From: an uncultured Candidatus Saccharibacteria bacterium
GTDB lineage: Bacteria > Patescibacteriota > Minisyncoccia > Phycocordibacterales > UBA9973
Assembly (NCBI GenBank): GCA_964348725.1
Contig: CAYGDG010000005.1
Span: 1-62,770, forward strand
DNA length: 62,770 bases
Direction of reading: 5' to 3'
Shown: one piece after another, positions 15,277 to 56,519 of the stretch
Layout of the letters: each line of letters opens with the position of its first letter
Position numbering within the stretch: the first letter of the stretch is position 1
Notes under the pieces: model-generated
The model's input: only the letters and a program-made list of their open reading frames with translations
What the model was told of the DNA's origin: nothing
The model's database searches: none
Made by a program: the position numbers and the translations under genes

Positions 15277-15472
15277 CTCATGCTTTTCAGCACGATTTAC
15301 CTGAAGCCTATATTCGCATATTTCAGGCGCAAATGCAACCTGTACAAATAGGAAGACTTCACTATATATAACGTATCAAAAGGAGGTATATTTCAGGTTT
15401 TTTACCGCACCACAGATTGTCTACTTTGCCAAGAAATAGCGGCTCCCCGCCACAGGCGGGCAGGCACCGCTT

Positions 15473-16342
15473 CTACCTGTCCTTTATAAAATATTTACTC
15501 CATCTTTTTTCCCCAACTTTTTTTAATAAACCATTTTGCACCATGGAGGCCAGCTCGCGCTGGAGGGTTTTCTCCCCGCAATTCGCGAGCGTGCCCTCCG
15601 CGGCAAGGCGGATGTCTGATATGGTAGCGCTTTTCTTCCCCTCCACGGCGGGCGAGTCTTTTATGATTTTCAAGATTTCATTTCGGCGATCTTTCTTTAG
15701 GACATCAAAATCAGATGTCCGTGAGGCAAGACCTAGCATGCTAGGTCTTGCCTCACCTGTTTTGTCTTTTATTTTGTCCGAGATGGCTTTCATAAGTGTG
15801 CCGCCTCTTTGTACGCCGATGCGCATGTTTCCCTCTTCTGGGGTGGCTCGGTGAAGAACCTCACCCCTGCCCCTCTCCTTATTAAGGAGAGGGGGAAAAT
15901 CCTCCACCTCCCCCTTTGGGTACTCCTCAAGAGGAGAATTAAAATCCAAAAACCCCTCCAAAGAAAACTCATGTTTTGGCTGGATTAATTTTTCAAATTC
16001 ACACGCCAAGATAGTGCGATTCATGTCTGAAATCATGCCCATGGTGCCGGCTATGTCCAAGAGCGCGATGATCGCATGAAACTTGGAAGTTGGACTTCCA
16101 CTTGGAAGTCCAACTTCCAAGTTTGTGTCCGATAGGACATCCGTACCAAGAGAACGCAGTTTCAGCCTTATAGGTTCAGTATTGTCCATTATGTCCGTTA
16201 CCATGTAGAGCGCAGTTATAAGCTTTTTAAGCTTTTCGGACCCCTCCCTTCGCCCTCCCCTTACTAAGGGGAGGGTTGGGGTGGGGTACACATTGTCCGA
16301 GAGATTTTTTGCGTTGTGTTCGCCGTTATTCATGAAGTCCAT
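15473..16342 (-). CDS. Hypothetical protein with C-terminal winged helix, carrying several in-frame palindromic insertions
   Basis: KLKKLITALYMVTD N-terminal domain; RRNEILKII...EKTLQRELASMV..GLLKKVGEKRWSKY wHTH. Confidence 0.8.
   Translation of the reverse strand: MDFMNNGEHNAKNLSDNVYPTPTLPLVRGGRREGSEKLKKLITALYMVTDIMDNTEPIRLKLRSLGTDVLSDTNLEVGLPSGSPTSKFHAIIALLDIAGTMGMISDMNRTILACEFEKLIQPKHEFSLEGFLDFNSPLEEYPKGEVEDFPPLLNKERGRGEVLHRATPEEGNMRIGVQRGGTLMKAISDKIKDKTGEARPSMLGLASRTSDFDVLKKDRRNEILKIIKDSPAVEGKKSATISDIRLAAEGTLANCGEKTLQRELASMVQNGLLKKVGEKRWSKYFIKDR
15721..15756. repeat. REP-like palindrome family B (AGG-CAAGA-CCT dimer), in frame
   Basis: Perfect 36-bp palindrome GTGAGGCAAGACCTAGCA|TGCTAGGTCTTGCCTCAC. 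Confidence 0.9.
16079..16124. repeat. REP-like palindrome family C (GGAAG-TCCAA-CTTCC dimer), in frame
   Basis: 22-bp perfect arms with a 2-nt centre. Confidence 0.9.
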
Positions 16343-16378
16343 TATATATAGGACAGGTAAAATAGCAAGCTGAATTTT

Positions 16379-16500
16379 TTCCCCTCCTTGAGTAAGGAGG
16401 GGTGGCTTTTGTAATCAAAAGCCGGGGTGGTAATTCTGCATTCAAATCACCACCTCGCCCGACAAGTCGGGCACTCCTCCTCGGAAAGGAGGAGAGGAAA
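16379..16500. repeat. Inverted pair of family D composite elements between divergent genes
   Basis: CCCCTCCTT..AAGGAGGGG-TGGCTTTT..AAAAGCCGGGGTGGT and CACCACCTCGCCCGAC..GTCGGGCACTCCTCCT..AGGAGGAG. Confidence 0.75.
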
Positions 16501-16533: not shown

Positions 16534-18786
16534 ATGTCAAAGAAAGAAAAATCTTCTACAAAAGAATCTAAGCGAGATACAAAAAAACCAAGCAACCTGA
16601 AAACCGAAACAAAGCACGGCATCGCGGCCGTCATATTTTTCGTGCTCGCTTTATTCTTATTCATGGCGGCATTCGGCATAGCGGGAACGGGAGGAAAGTT
16701 CGTATATACAAATTTATATTTCTTGCTCGGCTGGGGTTATGTGCTCTTGCCGGTGCTGTGCATTTTGCTCGGCATTTCTTTTGTGAAAAGCGAGCGCCCG
16801 AATATCGGACTGACCCGCACGCTCTCCGGCGCACTGTTCCTTTTCTCCGGCCTCGGCATCATACAAATAGCATCCGGCTTTCCGGAAACATCCGGCGGCG
16901 CGGGCGGATTTCTCGGCGAAGTAGCCGCTTCGCCGCTCGTATATTTATTTGATATGTATGCCGGCATTATCCTACTCGGCGCGCTCCTCATTATCTCGCT
17001 CCTCGTCATGTTTGACGCAAAGCCAGCGCTCATTCCATTCTTCAAAAATCTCTGGGAAGGCGCGGCGGAAAATAAGAAAAAACTGGATGAAAAATTGGAA
17101 GCCCTCGGCGAAGAGGATGAATACGAAATAACAGGAGTGGAAACGGAGGGTGCTCCCCCTGCGAAGGGGGAGATGCCGAAGGCAGAGGGGGTGAAAGAAA
17201 CAAAAGCACCCCTCCGCTCCGGCAAGCCGGAGCACCTCCCCTTAGCAGGGGAGGAAACCGAAGAAATGCCGATAAAGAAGCGCAAGCACAAAGAAGGCGA
17301 TTATGTTCCCCCGCCGCTCAATTTACTTGAAGAAGATTCGGGTAAGCCGAATACTGGTGATGTGAAAGCGAATGCGAATATCATCAAGCGCACTTTGGCA
17401 AACTTCGGCATTGAAGTAGAAATGGATGAAATCACCGTCGGCCCTTCCATCACTCGCTATGCATTAAAGCCGGCCGAAGGCGTGAAGCTCTCCCGCATTG
17501 TGGGCTTACAAAGTGACCTCGCCCTCGCCCTCGCCGCTCATCCCCTCCGCATTGAAGCTCCTATCCCGGGCAAATCATTGGTAGGTATTGAAATTCCAAA
17601 TAAAACAAAATCAACCGTCGGCCTCGCTACGCTCCTCGGTGATCCAAACTTCCAGAATTCCCCGAATCCCCTTACCATCGCCCTCGGCCGCGGCATTTCC
17701 GGCAAAGCTTCCTTTGGTAACTTGGCTAAAATGCCGCACGCCCTCATCGCGGGAACGACAGGCTCCGGAAAATCCGTTACTATTCACTCTGTCATTACTT
17801 CCCTGCTCTATAGAAATGGTCCGGATGAGCTGAAATTTATCATGGTGGACCCGAAGCGCGTGGAACTTACGCTATATAACAAGATTCCACACCTTTTGAC
17901 CCCTGTCATTACTGAAGCAAAGAAAACTATCCTTGCTCTCAAATGGGCGGCAAAAGAAATGGATCGCCGCTATGATATCTTGCAGGAAGAATCCGTGCGC
18001 GATATCACTTCGTATCATGAAGTGATTGCAAAAGGAGGAAAGAAAATGAAAAAGAATGCCGACGGCACTGAGACTGAAGTAGAACCAGACCGCATGCCGT
18101 ATATCGTCATTATTATAGACGAGCTCGCTGACATCATGATCGCCTACCCGCGCGAACTGGAAAGCGCTATTGTACGCCTGGCTCAAATGTCCCGCGCTGT
18201 GGGCATACACCTTATATTGTCTACCCAGCGTCCGGAAGTGAATGTCATCACTGGCCTCATCAAGGCGAACGTGCCGGCTCGCGTCGCCCTGAAAGTATCT
18301 TCCCAAATAGATTCGCGCACTATATTAGATGCCGGCGGCGCAGAAAAATTGCTCGGTCAGGGAGACATGCTCTATTCTTCGGGCCAAGCCCAGCCGGAGC
18401 GCTTGCAGTCAGCCTACATTACAGAAACAGAAGTGAAGAAAGTCGTAAAATATCTTGCTGATGCGTACAGAGATGAAATTAGCGATGAGATAAATATGAC
18501 TGCCGGCGGCCTCTCGGCTGACAAGAGCATTTTTGAAAGCACATTGGATGATGAAGATGGTGAAGACGATGACGAAATGTATGAAGAAGCGAGGCAGACG
18601 GTCATAGAAGCCGGCAAAGCATCCACTTCATTCCTCCAGCGCAAATTAAAACTCGGCTATGCTCGTGCCGCTCGCCTGATGGATATCCTTGAAGAGCGCG
18701 GCGTCATCGGCCCCGGCGACGGCGCCAAGCCGCGTGAAGTATTGGAGCGAATTGACCGTACGGAAACCGGTGAAAATATAATGTAA
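16534..18786 (+). CDS. ftsK: DNA translocase FtsK/SpoIIIE
   Basis: N-terminal TM helices, IAGTTGSGKS Walker A, IIIDELAD, STQRP, gamma domain ASTSFLQRKLKLGYARAARLMD. Confidence 0.97.
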   Translation: MSKKEKSSTKESKRDTKKPSNLKTETKHGIAAVIFFVLALFLFMAAFGIAGTGGKFVYTNLYFLLGWGYVLLPVLCILLGISFVKSERPNIGLTRTLSGALFLFSGLGIIQIASGFPETSGGAGGFLGEVAASPLVYLFDMYAGIILLGALLIISLLVMFDAKPALIPFFKNLWEGAAENKKKLDEKLEALGEEDEYEITGVETEGAPPAKGEMPKAEGVKETKAPLRSGKPEHLPLAGEETEEMPIKKRKHKEGDYVPPPLNLLEEDSGKPNTGDVKANANIIKRTLANFGIEVEMDEITVGPSITRYALKPAEGVKLSRIVGLQSDLALALAAHPLRIEAPIPGKSLVGIEIPNKTKSTVGLATLLGDPNFQNSPNPLTIALGRGISGKASFGNLAKMPHALIAGTTGSGKSVTIHSVITSLLYRNGPDELKFIMVDPKRVELTLYNKIPHLLTPVITEAKKTILALKWAAKEMDRRYDILQEESVRDITSYHEVIAKGGKKMKKNADGTETEVEPDRMPYIVIIIDELADIMIAYPRELESAIVRLAQMSRAVGIHLILSTQRPEVNVITGLIKANVPARVALKVSSQIDSRTILDAGGAEKLLGQGDMLYSSGQAQPERLQSAYITETEVKKVVKYLADAYRDEISDEINMTAGGLSADKSIFESTLDDEDGEDDDEMYEEARQTVIEAGKASTSFLQRKLKLGYARAARLMDILEERGVIGPGDGAKPREVLERIDRTETGENIM

Positions 18787-18789
18787 CCA

Positions 18790-18826
18790 GAGGCAAGACC
18801 TCCCGTGTGAGGTCTTGCCTCACACA
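18790..18826. repeat. REP-like palindrome family B
   Basis: GAGGCAAGACCTC-CCGTGT-GAGGTCTTGCCTC immediately after the ftsK stop. Confidence 0.85.
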
Positions 18827-18829
18827 AAC

Positions 18830-21523: not shown

Positions 21524-24500
21524 TTACTTTCTCTTAAGCTCTTCAATCTCCTTTTGAAGTGCTTCGATCATCTTCTGCTGTTCCTGCATGGCTTTCACCA
21601 TCGGCACAACAAATTCCGCGTAGCGCAATCCGTAGAAATCATTCTCATTCTTCGGAGCATCTACTCCGCTAAAATCATAACCGATTTCTTTGGCTGTTTG
21701 TTCTACCTCCTGCGCGATGAATCCGGATTGAAGGATTGCTCCTTTCAATTTTTCCGAATCTTTCAAGCGCAAGCTGTCCGGCGTACCCAGCTCCCTCGCA
21801 ATGGCATCCATATCAAGGTGATATGTCACCGGTCGTAGTTTCGTGATGAATTCCAAACCTGGCACTTCTGCTTTGATGTCCTTTTTAAAACGAACATCAG
21901 AAACATTCGTCCAGTTTGCGAATCCTCCGATTGAGGAAACAGATGCATCGCCCAAACGAATTTGGTCGCTGGCTGTGATATCAGTGTAGGCACCAAGAGC
22001 AGTGGAGTTGGAATAATTAGTCCCAAAAGGAAATGCCGAAGTTCCTAACGCTGTGTTAAATAAACCAGTCGTATTATTCTGAAGCGCAGCCCATCCGATT
22101 CCGGTGTTGTAACTACCAGTAGTATTACTAGATAAAGCATCATAACCAGAGGCAGTATTTCCATCTCCTGATAAATTACTACTCAATGAATTAAATCCAT
22201 TAGCGGTATTATTTGAACCAGTTGTATTTGAAAACATTGCCAAACATCCATTAACAGAATTAGTCTGTCCGCTTGTATTATTATACAAAGCAGAAGTTCC
22301 AACACCAATGTTGAAACCCCCATCAATATTTTGCCACAAAGAATATGCTCCATTAGCAACATTTCCGCCACCGGTTGTGTTGGAATTAAGTGCTAGATAT
22401 CCAGCCGATACATTAAATGTTCCGTCTGTGTTAGATCCCAGAGCAGCAAAACCTGTGGCAGTATTAAAGTTTCCAATAGTATTAGATACCAATGCTGAAA
22501 CCCCCAAAGCAGTGTTGCAAAATCCAGTAGTATTACTCATAAGTGCTTGATTACCCACTGCTGTATTAGAAGCACCGGTAGTGTTCGCAAATAGTGCAGT
22601 AGAACCAACAGCGGTATTCCAGTTTCCCGTTGTGTTTGAATAAATTGCTTTCCATCCAATACCTGTATTATAACCACCTGTGGTATTTGAATAAAGCGCT
22701 TCATTTCCAAAACCAGAATTGGCATTTCCACTTGTATTGGAATAAAGTGATCCGGAACCAAATGCAGATTCTCCGCTTCCATCTATATTAGAATAGAGTG
22801 AAAGAAACCCAACAGAAACATTATTAGCCCCTATTGTATTTGAAGCCGAAGATCCACTTCCTAGTGCAGTATTCTGACTGCCTGTACTGTTTTGATTAAG
22901 AGCATTACTTCCTATTGCGGTATTTTCAAACCCTGTAGTGTTGTTCATAAGAGACCAACGACCAACAGCTGTATTCCCCCAACCAGAAGTATTTTGCATT
23001 CCAGCAAGAGCACCAATAAAAACACTGGTACCACCATTAGAAGGATTCTCATTTTCACCAGCAAGTGCGCCGATGTAAATAGCGTCGTTACTATTGGTAG
23101 GAACAAATTGTCCTTTAGTCGTAATACTCCAACGAACAGAATTATTAGTTCGGAAATCAATCGGTTGATTGTCTATCGTTCCAATGAAGTTCGTACCTGA
23201 AGTCGTTCCAGAATTTCCAAAAAGTCCCCAGGCATTTTCTGCTCCATCGGCACCAGTTGCACCAGTTTGACCTGTTGCACCGTTTGCGCCATCTAGTCCA
23301 TCAATGCCATCGACACCATCAGTTCCATTAATACCAGCTAAACCCGTATTTCCTGTAGAACCAGTTGGGCCCGTCGCACCGTTTATTCCAGCAGAACCTG
23401 TGGCTCCAGTATTTCCTTGCGCGCCTGTTGAACCATCAAGACCGTTGGTTCCGTTTACACCAGTTGCACCAGTATTACCCGTTGCACCAGTGACGCCGTT
23501 TGTGCCATTTGTCCCAGGAGTTCCCGTCGCGCCGGTGTTACCATTCACTCCGTTAATTCCGTCAGTTCCGTTCACGCCCGCAATTCCTTGCGCGCCTGTT
23601 GAACCAGTGGAACCATTCAGACCATCAACGCCATTCGTACCGTCCATTCCCGGAATTCCAGTCGCTCCAGTGTTACCCGTCGCTCCGTCTATTCCAGCAG
23701 AACCAGTCGGACCAGTAGCTCCGACAGAACCTGTAGCTCCAGTTTCACCTGTGCTTCCATTTGCTCCATCTGAACCATTGATTCCATTGTTGCCAGTTGC
23801 ACCAGTAATACCATCTAGTCCATTAGTACCATTTAATCCAGCCACACCATCAGTACCATTTGTTCCGTCAGTCCCCGAAGGTCCGGTCGGTCCCATTGCG
23901 CCGTTCGTGCCGTTCAATCCATCAATGCCATTTAATCCTGCGGTACCTGTAGCTCCGGTATTACCCATCGCTCCGTTTAATCCAGCAGAACCAGTTACAC
24001 CAGTATTTCCTGTTGCACCATTTATACCAGCAAGACCATCTGAACCATTCAGTCCATTTGCTCCTGTCGGTCCAATGCCACCGTTTGTACCATTCATACC
24101 ATTATTGCCAGTCGGACCTTGCGATCCATTTACACCAGCTACTCCGGTATTTCCTGTAGCGCCAGTTGTGCCATTAGTCCCGTTAATGCCCGCAATTCCT
24201 GTTAATCCAATTGGACCAACATTTCCTTGCAAACCAATTGCGCCTTGCGAACCAGTTGCACCAGTATTTCCATTTATACCATTGACGCCATTTGCGCCGG
24301 TTGGACCTGTAACACCAGTAGAACCATTTACTCCATTCACACCATTTGAACCAGTCGGTCCGGGTGTTCCGGGAGTTCCTGAACTTTCAGCATACAAAGC
24401 ATATGGAACAGAAACAAACTGAACAATTCCTAAAAGGAAATAACTTCCAGTGCCGAAAAAATCGATTTCAACTTGAAACCATTTTTCTCCCTGACTCCAT

Positions 24501-53656: not shown

Positions 53657-54128
53657 AGCTCGCGAGCTCTGCCGGCATATTGTCGGCGAAGCTCGTGGCT
53701 ATCTGGTCTGCTCGTTCATTATGAATAATTCCTGAATGCCCTGCTACATAAGTCCACTTCGGCTTCAATTCTTGAGTTAAGGCGTGCAGTTCTTCCCATA
53801 GTTCCTTATTCACCACCGGCTTCTTCGCCGCATTCCGCCAGCCATTTTTCATCCAGCCGTGGATCCATTCCGTAATTCCAATAATCACATATTTTGAATC
53901 GCTGAAAATCTCCACCTGCGTTAGGTCTTGCCTAACGCACTTCTGCTGAAGGTATTTCAAAGCACCGATAGGCGCAGAAAGCTCCATCTGATTATTCGTC
54001 GCCTTTTCCGCCCCGCCGCCTATCTCCTGCACCTTCCCCTCGCCGAAAATAATGACCGCGCCCCATCCCGCCGGACCCGGATTCCCCCTCGCCGCCCCGT
54101 CGGTATAAATGATTATCTTTTCTGACAT
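53646..54128 (-). CDS. rnhA: Ribonuclease HI
   Basis: YTDGAARGNPGPAGWG, TNNQMEL, SDSKYV, AGHSG...NERAD. Confidence 0.96.
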   Translation of the reverse strand: MSEKIIIYTDGAARGNPGPAGWGAVIIFGEGKVQEIGGGAEKATNNQMELSAPIGALKYLQQKCVRQDLTQVEIFSDSKYVIIGITEWIHGWMKNGWRNAAKKPVVNKELWEELHALTQELKPKWTYVAGHSGIIHNERADQIATSFADNMPAELASYAG

Positions 54129-54851: not shown

Positions 54852-56519
54852 TTAGACTACATCCGTTATTCGCAATCGCAATTCCACCCTGCCGGCAAAA
54901 CGGGAAAGGTCAAAGGTGGCAAGGAGATTTATAGGAAGACCTTCGGCAATCGGAGCGGAAAAGGATTCCGGACCGGCGAAGAATGAAACGGCCTTGCCTT
55001 TACCGGTGGCATCCGAAAGCAGGAGTTCAATGTGCTCAGTGGCTTTGCCGAATTTTTTTATTTTTTCTACCTTTACGCCTTCAAAGAGGAAGACGGGCTT
55101 CGGGTTGCCTTCGCCGAAGGGGGCGAGCTTTTCCAGCTCGCTGTAATTCCGCAAGTTCACATCCGCCAGATTTATTTTCGCATCATAGGCGGCATTTTTT
55201 TCTTTCACTTTCTTCTCGGCTTTCATAAATGAGGCGGACAAGGCATCTTCAAGGAAATGTATCTTGTCATTATGCACAGAAAATCCGCCCGCGCCTTCGT
55301 GCCCGCCGAATGCGGAAAAGTGCTCACTGCTCGCGGTCATGAGTTCCACTACGGACACTGTGCCATCCGAGCGACACGAGCCTTTGATGATGTCATTCTC
55401 ATCCCTGCCCCACACGAAAGCGGGCTTTTTGTATGTGTCGGTGATTTTGCCGGCGACCAATCCCAAGACGCCGATGCGCCACGCGGGATTGCCAATGACG
55501 ATAACTTCGCGCATTTCCTCCACCGGACTACTGCTAAATTTTTTATTCACTTCGCGCATAATACCTGCCACCATCAGCTTGCGCTCGTCATTGATGTCTG
55601 ACAGATGCTCCGCCAATGCTCCCGCTTCACTATCTTCTTTTGCAGACAAGAGCTCAAATGCGCGGCGCGGATCGCTCATCCGTGAAGCGGCATTGAGCCG
55701 CGGGGTGAGCATATAGCCGATATCATCCTCGGAAAGGAATTTCTGGTCTATCTTTGCTTTGGCGAGAAGTTTCTGAAGGCCGGGACGCGGTGATTTGCGG
55801 AGTACCTTCATTCCAAAGTGCGCGATGGCACGATTCTCGCCAAGGAGCGGCACCATATCCGAAAGTGTAGCAAGCCCTGCCATATCCAAGAGCCACTTTT
55901 CCGCGCCTTCTTTTATCTTGAAATATTCTCCGTATTTTTTGATAAAGCCCTGCGCTAATTTAAATGCCACGCCCGCACCACAGAGCATCTTCTCCACATA
56001 TTCATCGCACTTGGGATTCAAAATAGCATACGCGCGCGGCAATATTGCCGGCGGGAGGTGATGGTCTGTAATGATGACATCCATCCCGAGCACTTCCGCC
56101 TGCGCCACTTCGGCAACAGCGGTAATTCCCAAATCAATAGTGATGATGAGTTTCACATCATTTTTCGCAAATTCTTGTATGGCCGCGAGGTTCAAGCCGT
56201 ACCCTTCGGAATTCCTTTGCGGAATGTATACTTCAACTTGCCCGCCGTGGAGGGAATTTTCATAGCCGCAGAGCTTGAATAAGTCCGACAGAATGACCGC
56301 GCCCGGAATACCATCACAGTCATAGTCAGCAAAAATCAGTATTTTTTCTTTGGCTTCCATCGCCTCAAAAATCCGTACGCAGGATTTTTCCATATCGCGC
56401 ATGAGGAATGGGTCATGAAAATCGCGCTCATAGCTCGGCACGAGGAATGCTTCACGCATATCGGCGGAAATTCCCCTCTTTTCCAGCAAATTATTCAATA
56501 AATCCGAGCTATTTCCCAT
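54852..56519 (-). CDS. recJ: Single-stranded DNA exonuclease RecJ
   Basis: DYDCDG, ITDHH, DMVPL, PRLNAASR, GGHEGAGG, PFGEGNP. Confidence 0.95.
   Translation of the reverse strand: MGNSSDLLNNLLEKRGISADMREAFLVPSYERDFHDPFLMRDMEKSCVRIFEAMEAKEKILIFADYDCDGIPGAVILSDLFKLCGYENSLHGGQVEVYIPQRNSEGYGLNLAAIQEFAKNDVKLIITIDLGITAVAEVAQAEVLGMDVIITDHHLPPAILPRAYAILNPKCDEYVEKMLCGAGVAFKLAQGFIKKYGEYFKIKEGAEKWLLDMAGLATLSDMVPLLGENRAIAHFGMKVLRKSPRPGLQKLLAKAKIDQKFLSEDDIGYMLTPRLNAASRMSDPRRAFELLSAKEDSEAGALAEHLSDINDERKLMVAGIMREVNKKFSSSPVEEMREVIVIGNPAWRIGVLGLVAGKITDTYKKPAFVWGRDENDIIKGSCRSDGTVSVVELMTASSEHFSAFGGHEGAGGFSVHNDKIHFLEDALSASFMKAEKKVKEKNAAYDAKINLADVNLRNYSELEKLAPFGEGNPKPVFLFEGVKVEKIKKFGKATEHIELLLSDATGKGKAVSFFAGPESFSAPIAEGLPINLLATFDLSRFAGRVELRLRITDVV

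Follow-up and report, generated by a model that had tools for sequence, protein, structure and literature searches.

What allows a small, conserved bacterial gene to carry half a dozen palindromic DNA elements of several repeat families within its open reading frame (ORF), and how did they come to lie there? A gene at positions 15473-16342 (minus strand, 289 aa) of a 62,770-nt stretch of DNA from an uncultured Candidatus Saccharibacteria bacterium (contig CAYGDG010000005.1 of GCA_964348725.1; hereafter the window) raises this question. In its metagenome assembly of 957 kb and 26 contigs, labelled G000, the window is contig C5. We favor, with a probability of roughly 0.78, an answer in which the linker segments of an ordinary conserved gene have been taken over by several families of hairpin repeats spreading as DNA sequences.

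A first-pass annotation, made from the letters alone, had reported six elements in frame within this gene. All six sequences were indeed found where it had placed them, with the frame open throughout and four of them forming perfect inverted repeats: 16079-16124 (22+22 bp, 2-nt loop), 15721-15756 (18+18 bp, no loop), 15870-15894 (12+12 bp, loop of 1 nt) and 16253-16275 (11+11 bp, loop of 1 nt). Five of the six are strong and one is weak. In the order in which the gene is read, the elements and a decayed arm belonging to one of them are as follows.

16241-16287, plus strand: D2, a hairpin CCCTCCCCTTA-C-TAAGGGGAGGG (16253-16275) with the mirror GT tail GGGTGGGGT.
16079-16124, no strand assigned: C, a perfect 46-bp palindrome consisting of two overlapping inverted copies of the repetitive extragenic palindromic (REP) sequence ACTTGGAAGTCC(A/G)ACTTCCAAGT.
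15900-15944, minus strand: E-left, TTTTAATTCTCCTCTTGAGGAGTACCCAAAGGGGGAGGTGGAGGA, comprising the hairpin CTCCTC-TT-GAGGAG, a spacer and a G-rich tail with GAGGTG.
15858-15896, plus strand: D1, the tail AACCTCACCCC, then TG, then the hairpin CCCCTCTCCTTA-T-TAAGGAGAGGGG.
15828-15846, minus strand: E-right remnant, GCCACCCCAGAAGAGGGAA (ATPEEG), a decayed, frame-shifted form of the orthologue arm AGCCACCCCTCAAGAGGGGAA (SHPSRGE).
15721-15756, no strand assigned: B, a perfect 36-bp palindrome GTG-AGGCAAGACCT-AGCATGCT-AGGTCTTGCCT-CAC, resembling a REPIN (REP doublet forming hairpins) and built from the REP core of RAYT-1, a gene like those for REP-associated tyrosine transposases (RAYTs).
15639-15656, plus strand: F, CCCTCCACGGCGGGCGAG, 18 nt, a degenerate member of the CCCGCC-ACGG-CGGG small-hairpin family.

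The host is a real coding gene rather than a pseudogene, because it is single-copy with orthologues in 22 of the 24 same-genus genomes, sits in conserved synteny, keeps the invariant residues of its family and encodes confidently folded domains. It is divergent from ftsK and lies upstream of a gene for a giant peptidoglycan-binding protein, an order shared by the orthologous loci fetched. All 30 residues that are invariant in a 119-sequence alignment are retained, bearing out the earlier claim that conserved blocks persist despite the elements; the possibility of an untranslated pseudogene, raised in the same annotation as what would overturn its reading, is contradicted by the open frame, these residues and the synteny. 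Pfam and NCBIfam gave no match for the protein. Homologues are nonetheless plentiful: 579 at E<=0.001 in a word-indexed search and, in an exhaustive one, 2541 representative clusters at E<=0.001, 1025 of them at E<=1e-10, with the named members being Paceibacteria/Parcubacteria-type 'hypothetical' proteins of 260-330 aa.

The 119-member alignment resolves into conserved blocks and five variable segments: four linkers and a tail at the N-terminus. In an AlphaFold model computed from this alignment, residues 33-120 form a four-helix bundle and residues 204-286 a winged helix, both modelled confidently with a predicted local distance difference test score (pLDDT) above 90; they are separated and preceded by segments of low confidence (residues 1-30 and 125-174, pLDDT below 50; loops 76-84 and 193-203, pLDDT ~55-68). 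Low-confidence linker makes up ~40% of the protein. The nearest folds were Avd/'S23-family' four-helix bundles (2gsc/2rld/4dwl) and Fur/PerR/ArsR winged helices, matches that are generic only and point to no particular function; from the model, the gene may encode a small, conserved protein of DNA-binding type.

Mapping the elements onto this structure, as had been proposed, placed five of them (D2, C, E, D1 and B) in segments of pLDDT ~40-68 and F in a confident turn. D2 codes for residues ~20-34 (PTPTLPLVRGGRREG) in the N-terminal tail, where pLDDT is below 50, and C for TNLEVGLPSGSPTSKF, residues 73-88, in the loop joining helix 2 to helix 3. E-left encodes FNSPLEEYPKGEVED, with which linker 2 begins; D1, coding for PPLLNKERGRGEV, is nested in the middle of an E composite in the same linker. 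B codes for GEARPSMLGLASR in linker 3 and F, a poor palindrome with 5/6 stem pairs, for SPAVEG in linker 4. The predicted repeat-coded stretches of the protein include TLPLVRGG, LEVGLPSGSPTSK, SPLEEYPK, PPLLNKER and EARPSMLGLASR. By reading of the sequence, only one of the three frames of B is free of stop codons, and this is the frame used in every carrier, while two of the three are stop-free in the D elements. Rfam returned no family at gathering score, the hairpins giving sub-threshold chance matches only.

The 5′ end of the gene deserves separate mention. A promoter-like site (TTGCTA-16 nt-TATAAT; 16331-16379, minus strand) overlaps the first ATG of the ORF, and TATAAT is also found upstream of many orthologues, where it appears as the pseudo-translation 'LYIMDxM'. 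Judging from these sequences, the true start is probably the second ATG, M4, which is nearly invariant in the family and would give a 286-aa protein from a leaderless mRNA. The public gene call (P0001; 15473-16204, 243 aa) begins at M47 instead and loses the invariant first helix, K37-Y46. As there is no start codon between residues 19 and 47, D2 must be translated if helix 1 is. This is a warning for annotation, the public call starting 46 codons late, apparently owing to the N-terminal repeat.

Is such a density of hairpins unusual for this genome? Using a rough ORF-model gene map (992 genes, 88% coding) for genome-wide counts, we found that, among the 30 intragenic hairpins of the genome whose stems reach at least 11 bp, 4 lie in the host gene, as compared to ~0.03 expected (Poisson P ~4e-8; ~4e-5 when corrected for 992 genes). 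It ranked first at all stem thresholds from 9 bp upward and is the top intragenic hairpin hotspot of the genome. Codon shuffling of the gene (2000 shuffles) gave 0.0065 hairpins with stems of at least 10 bp (maximum 1), against 5 observed. Nor is this a property of the family at large: 209 of 248 homologues contain none of the motif peptides, the window's protein alone has five classes of them, and 19 of 22 congener orthologues lack such a hairpin inside the coding region (a count taken from the listing). The gene had been described as a sink for mobile palindromes, a phrase that holds as far as the hotspot and its tolerant variable segments go, with mobility being suggested by the distribution of the elements.

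The elements had further been regarded as insertions. Net additions to the protein they are not: the segments that contain them lie at or close to the family medians. The N-terminal tail measures 36 aa (median 36), linker 1 21 aa (21) and linker 2 57 aa (57), with small excesses in linker 3 (26 aa versus 24) and linker 4 (17 aa versus 12); only F coincides with a length excess, of ~5-6 aa. Simple addition of six elements (~78 aa) would predict a protein of ~360 aa as opposed to the actual 289 aa, and hairpin-free congeners have the same segment lengths (median total 282 aa). Linker 2 spans 138 nt here despite the nested D1, as compared to 135, 117 and 132 nt in three orthologues with E. Throughout the family, the linker that holds an element is only 1-9 aa longer in carriers than in non-carriers, and the whole protein 8 aa longer. 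An alignment against orthologues, suggested earlier as a check for indels in multiples of three, revealed no clean indels at the elements, the alignment of linkers not being meaningful. The repeats thus occupy linker positions without net insertion, and since segment lengths sit at the family median, they either replace linker DNA or are offset by deletions.

If the repeats spread as DNA, their traces in other family members should be found in the nucleotides. Among the 248 homologues, repeat-coded peptides comprise PLEEY (15 proteins, at the position of E at the start of linker 2), HPS(R/K)GE (13), PLLxKE-type (20) and ARPxMLGL (5, including P0001). In the orthologues for which DNA was fetched, these peptides are coded by matching palindromes; the counter-case named by the first-pass annotation, the same peptides without palindromic DNA, was not what we found, as L032 and L033 carry palindromic DNA. 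L032 contains two B doublets (in the N-terminal tail and in linker 2, none in linker 3), of which the tail copy is identical to the window's B at 32/32 positions, while L033 has a B doublet in linker 3 and L031 a decayed one in the same linker. L038 has a near-identical D1 within its N-terminal tail, with the tail part of the element read in another frame (39/41 bases by our own count by eye, not computed). NSPLEEY is written with the same seven codons in four organisms; elsewhere in the same four proteins the codon is shared in 26 of 87 same-residue columns, and the invariant EKTLQREL shares none. On these sequence comparisons, the identity across orthologues resides in the DNA and not in the protein.

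The carriers also appear scattered. On a FastTree tree computed from 190 well-filled conserved columns only, the 15 carriers of E require 13 changes (shuffled mean 14.7), the 23 carriers of D 17 changes (shuffled mean 22) and the five carriers of B five changes, which is suggestive of a distribution about like that of shuffled labels. Because the palindromes of the window are perfect while congeners lack them, they would reflect recent events in this lineage.

Every family has relatives at other sites in the genome, intergenic ones as well as copies in frame within other genes, which confirms genome-wide what had been proposed from the window. Family B leads to a candidate agent. Its 12-mer GAGGCAAGACCT occurs 10 times in G000 as compared to ~0.1 expected, and two copies, forming the hairpins GTGTGAGG-CAAGA-CCTCACAC, lie on both sides (23379-23400 and 24068-24092) of the 217-aa RAYT-1 gene at C12:23421-24074, whose product passes Pfam Y1_Tnp. 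Across the 40 nearest genomes, the 11-mer core of B is enriched in the genus, with up to 21 copies per genome, the reversed 11-mer control giving 0-1 copies in most genomes and at most 3; the core also flanks the nearest RAYT-1 orthologues in G014, G008, G007, G001, G003 and G022. This makes B a REPIN-like doublet in which the repeated unit is the cognate REP of a RAYT-like transposase. Inverted doublets with cores offset by 19-24 nt are common across the genus. Around B doublets we found no common target sequence and no target-site duplication.

Family C points to a second such gene, in congeners. The inner C hairpin (16100-16122) is identical at 22/23 positions to the REP around and inside the RAYT gene C5:26313-26753 of G015; the 23-mer lies ahead of this RAYT-like gene, within it and at its end or just beyond, and a variant flanks one in G023. 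Copies of the C core number 5 in G000 and 10 in G015. Further in-frame C copies of G000 lie at C3 14648-14697 and C6 15278-15298 (smaller); counting B and C together, in-frame copies occur within genes of contigs C1, C3, C6 and C11, as well as at window positions 53919-53939. G000 encodes three RAYT-like proteins, whose best and only NCBIfam match is NF047646 (REP-associated tyrosine transposase). They pass Pfam Y1_Tnp (36, 32 and 34 bits versus a cut-off of 23), and an HUH motif (NHFH) and a YxxxN(P) tyrosine are seen in RAYT-like sequences.

Several observations on RAYT-like genes and B-type repeats stand on their own. The two other RAYT-like genes of G000 each have a flanking hairpin of their own that recurs in frame within the gene (TGTCCAGGCCCGGCCTGGAC at 50119-50137 in C3:49641-50300; TAGTTAGGGCTTTAGACCCTAAC at 77683-77710 in C3:77517-78179), just as the G015 gene carries its family-C REP within its coding sequence. 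In G017 (C1:377-395 kb; C2:126-130 kb; L084-L086), the B core forms direct repeats with covarying flanks, e.g. CCCCAG-AGGCAAGACCT-CTGGGG, spaced ~35-40 nt to 1 kb apart, an arrangement unlike the inverted doublets. A B doublet at 18790-18829 directly follows the ftsK stop codon and does likewise in the distant relative GCA_039732005.1 (L031 557-588); this is either an ancient terminator-like copy that was kept or the result of repeated hits on one site.

Elements of types D and E are built differently. The first-pass annotation had counted three family-D hairpins (D2, D1 and what we term E-left); all three are real repeats, and their structure turned out to be a hairpin with a mirror tail rather than a simple palindrome. 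The D unit, the commonest repeat of the genome, is oriented: a pyrimidine arm, a loop, a purine arm, 1-3 nt and a GT-rich tail that mirrors the purine arm, with G opposite G and T or A opposite A. A mirror tail of at least 8/9 on one side was seen for 28 of 37 pyrimidine-first hairpins as opposed to 0.4% of control positions; D1 scores 8/9 and D2 9/9. Readings of family D as a DNA-uptake sequence or as an anti-Shine-Dalgarno or Shine-Dalgarno mimic were set aside, the mirror-tail build explaining the conserved flank. D-type hairpins fall within ORFs of at least 120 codons in 24 of 32 cases. The genome has two DUF559 genes (C12:1039-1338 and C10:20314-20625), each with D-type elements on either side.

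E has a hairpin of only 6 bp (CTCCTC AA GAGGAG, 15924-15937) and occurs once only in this genome, yet its copies elsewhere mark it as a real repeat. Its tail GAGGTG mirrors the GAGGAG arm. A stretch of 38-45 nt recurs between genes in the congener G007 (C2:47075-47115) and in three orthologues (L033, L037 and L039), where it forms the left half of a ~90-nt inverted pair ending ...CACCCCTCAAGAGGGGAA (SHPSRGE). In the linker-2 DNA alignment, D1 occupies the place of TCCACCCCGG in these three. Linker 2 of L037 and L033 additionally holds a mini-hairpin inside the E spacer, CCGATTCCAAGTCGG or CCGACTTTAGTCGG (PDSKS, SDFSR), i.e. repeats within repeats. F has a 17/18 copy at 56237-56254, and C11 43618 holds a related one.

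Related elements were also found immediately outside the host gene, on either side.

16381-16437, plus strand: a D-variant, intergenic upstream of the host gene, with the hairpin CCCCTCCTTGAGTAAGGAGGGG, a nested hairpin GGCTTTTGTAATCAAAAGCC and the tail GGGGTGGT.
15441-15472, plus strand: an F-family hairpin (CCCGCC-ACA-GGCGGG plus flanks), directly after the host stop codon.

The D-variant is built like the element beside the DUF559 gene at C10 20688-20745. Farther afield, the ftsK linker contains in-frame, tailless GC hairpins at 17153-17172 (CTCCCCCTGCGAAGGGGGAG, APPAKGE) and 17235-17254 (CCTCCCCTTAGCAGGGGAGG, LPLAGE), a subfamily with three further copies on C1, C10 and C13. The gene at C3:48830-49657 combines an in-frame family-D element (SPLLDKERGQGV) with a RAYT-2 REP in its N-terminus (VQAGPGH); its product has a KSLGQNFL motif, presumably as in rsmA/ksgA. 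The base composition of contigs C15-C26 (also C2 and C7) is 55-68% G+C (C22 39%) versus ~45% in the main contigs, and the small high-G+C contigs may represent bin contamination; C3, C10 and C12, which bear the RAYT-like and DUF559 genes, have the main composition.

Taken together, we propose that at least two kinds of hairpin repeat would spread at the DNA level in this genome, REP/REPIN-type doublets (B and C) and mirror-tail elements (D1, D2 and E), with F as a putative decayed member of a family of 18-nt GC hairpins. As in the analogous REP/REPIN-RAYT systems (PMC3116915, PMC3337134), B may be moved by the RAYT-like Y1 (HUH) transposase encoded on C12. C would be the cognate hairpin of a RAYT clade that is now seen in congeners only, its agent being absent from this assembly. 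As to the mover of D and E, an involvement of DUF559 is conceivable and no more than a lead. Coding copies would persist only in stop-free frames and at protein sites that tolerate any sequence, and with ~40% of its length in linker, the host protein would therefore be the main point of accumulation in the genome. As linker lengths are constant, the repeats would replace older linker DNA, in part older repeats, as with D1 inside the older E composite; alternatively, selection on length might have favored deletions that offset the insertions, or copying might itself replace DNA. The repeat-coded peptides would then have no function of their own.

Several observations weigh against this proposal. 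None of the three RAYT-like genes in the assembly has family-C flanks, and the scores of their products against NF047646 (47, 40 and 26 bits) fall short of the NCBIfam cut-off of 80. The link between D and DUF559 is an association only. Of the six elements we are least sure of F, as it falls in a turn that is modelled with confidence. The tree is weakly resolved, so that part of the scatter of carriers may be tree error, and a search of 5.8 billion proteins gave 49-50% identity for the nearest homologue, too distant for an empty-site comparison. Finally, elements recur at matching linker positions in distant orthologues, with E always following the EF(L/F)N helix end and B lying in linker 3 of four proteins. 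Such recurrence is not wholly accounted for by random insertion plus tolerance and may reflect targeting or function.

The latter is the basis of a different explanation, in which the hairpins are working parts: mRNA or DNA structures tuning expression through pausing, stability or attenuation, operator-like palindromes for the encoded winged-helix protein, or functional peptide motifs (candidate linear motifs being PLLxKERG, SPLEEYP and EARPxMLGLAS). The matching positions and identical codons in distant orthologues, stems that are perfect over 18-22 bp and related elements on both sides of the gene would all be accommodated. However, 209 of the 248 homologues and most congeners do without any, the same elements turn up in frame in genes with no relation to the host (rsmA, ftsK and others) as well as in intergenic DNA, one and the same element is read in differing frames and linkers among orthologues, and the carriers are scattered on the tree; we regard a working role as quite unlikely. 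That the locus is a decaying pseudogene or an assembly artefact is scarcely credible. The late start of the database call at M47 and the fragmentation of the metagenome assembly into 26 contigs might suggest as much, but 289 open codons with all family-invariant residues and confidently modelled domains argue otherwise, as do identical elements in independent assemblies from other samples and the position of the palindromes in mid-contig.

The spread of repeats as DNA also has to be set against an origin on the spot, whereby the perfect palindromes were made in situ by template switching or snap-back synthesis at a short hairpin, only a single-REP core having arrived and the rest overwriting linker DNA. 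This would fit the length neutrality of all linkers, the composition of C as two overlapping REP copies and the doublets of other genomes, which conserve the 11-nt core only, their spacers and flanks varying yet remaining perfectly palindromic. It leaves unexplained, however, how the cores arrived and where the non-palindromic, tailed D and E elements came from, and the recurrence of the spacers AACATGTT and AGCATGCT in unrelated loci and genomes is as for a copied unit. We consider it unlikely as an explanation in its own right; it is compatible with DNA-level spread as a second step and so is not a true alternative.

A bolder reading, which we entertain tentatively and hold to be doubtful rather than implausible, is that repeats are copied into set linker positions by a structure- or sequence-guided replacement that preserves length. 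Hairpin-primed template switching or gap repair at sites nicked by RAYT or DUF559 proteins may provide the route. Guided replacement would explain at once the recurrence of identical codons at the same spot in scattered Parcubacteria, the constant linker length and the perfect palindromes around a conserved core. If true, genomes would have a dedicated route for rewriting disordered protein segments with selfish DNA, and the host family would be a natural assay for how REP- and triplex-type repeats move, a question open since the 1990s.

How do these elements compare with known systems? REP/REPIN-RAYT systems (PMC3116915, PMC3733652) share the short palindromic repeats, the inverted doublets and the hairpin-flanked Y1/HUH gene (for B here; for B and C in congeners). 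The present case differs in that no GTAG/CGTC tag is found (B units start with GTGAGG, CGAGG or AAGG, and C with ACTTGG), the transposases fall under the NCBIfam cut-off, the host belongs to the candidate phyla radiation and occupancy is length-neutral. REPs are, moreover, mainly extragenic, whereas here a large share of copies lies in frame within genes. Still, REPs inside genes have been described, including uvrA genes that contain between two and four REPs, and clusters of REPs that code for 43-82 aa (Di Nocera et al. 2013, PMC3733652), so that several families in one gene, by which the first-pass annotation had set the locus apart from Rickettsia palindromic elements, are not unique in kind.

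The mirror-tail elements have their closest counterparts in the intrastrand triplex motifs TM_ECO, BoxC and PIT, known from E. coli and other Proteobacteria, with which they share a C-rich arm, a loop, a G-rich arm, a short loop and a second G-rich block mirroring the first. The D elements, CCCTCTCC..GGAGAGGG..GGGGTGAGG, resemble by eye the TM_ECO consensus CCCTCNCCC N3-6 GGGNGAGGG N3 GGGNGAGGG (PMC4666352), the three blocks of D1 each matching ~8/9 positions of CCCTCNCCC, GGGNGAGGG and GGGNGAGGG (by eye, not by a formal search). Inverted pairs are known for these motifs as well, like the E composite here. In E. coli K-12, TM_ECO is 'always located intergenically' (PMC4666352); unlike it, D and E lie in frame within genes, where they would be translated, and bracket DUF559 genes, their build being of triplex type by sequence. 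Triplex-type repeats (TM_ECO/BoxC) have been described without a known mover.

Rickettsia palindromic elements (RPEs; PMC10969869, PMC3733652), to which the gene had initially been likened, are a functional analogue: they too are in-frame palindromes of several families found in many unrelated genes of a reduced genome, adding extra peptides in tolerant places. They measure ~100-150 bp and have a conserved peptide of their own, as opposed to the 18-46 bp of the elements here, which leave linkers unlengthened; only the E composite of the orthologues (~90 nt) nears RPE size, RPEs having been compared by description, not by sequence. Intragenic REPs/REPINs and TM_ECO/BoxC-type motifs are therefore the closer relatives.

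Intragenic REPs, multi-insert genes included, and RPEs are thus already published; in a full-text literature search we found no paper linking RAYT or REPIN with the candidate phyla radiation, Patescibacteria or Parcubacteria, and no report of palindromic repeats within genes for the candidate phyla radiation. What sets this locus apart from these precedents is how many elements, and how varied, a single small gene contains, together with their length-neutral occupancy and the recurrence of their sites. RAYT-type doublets and triplex-type elements coexist in frame in the host gene and form most of its low-confidence linkers, making its family, with >1000 orthologue clusters, a compact, alignable system for studying both the site choice of such repeats and the turnover of disordered segments in very small genomes.

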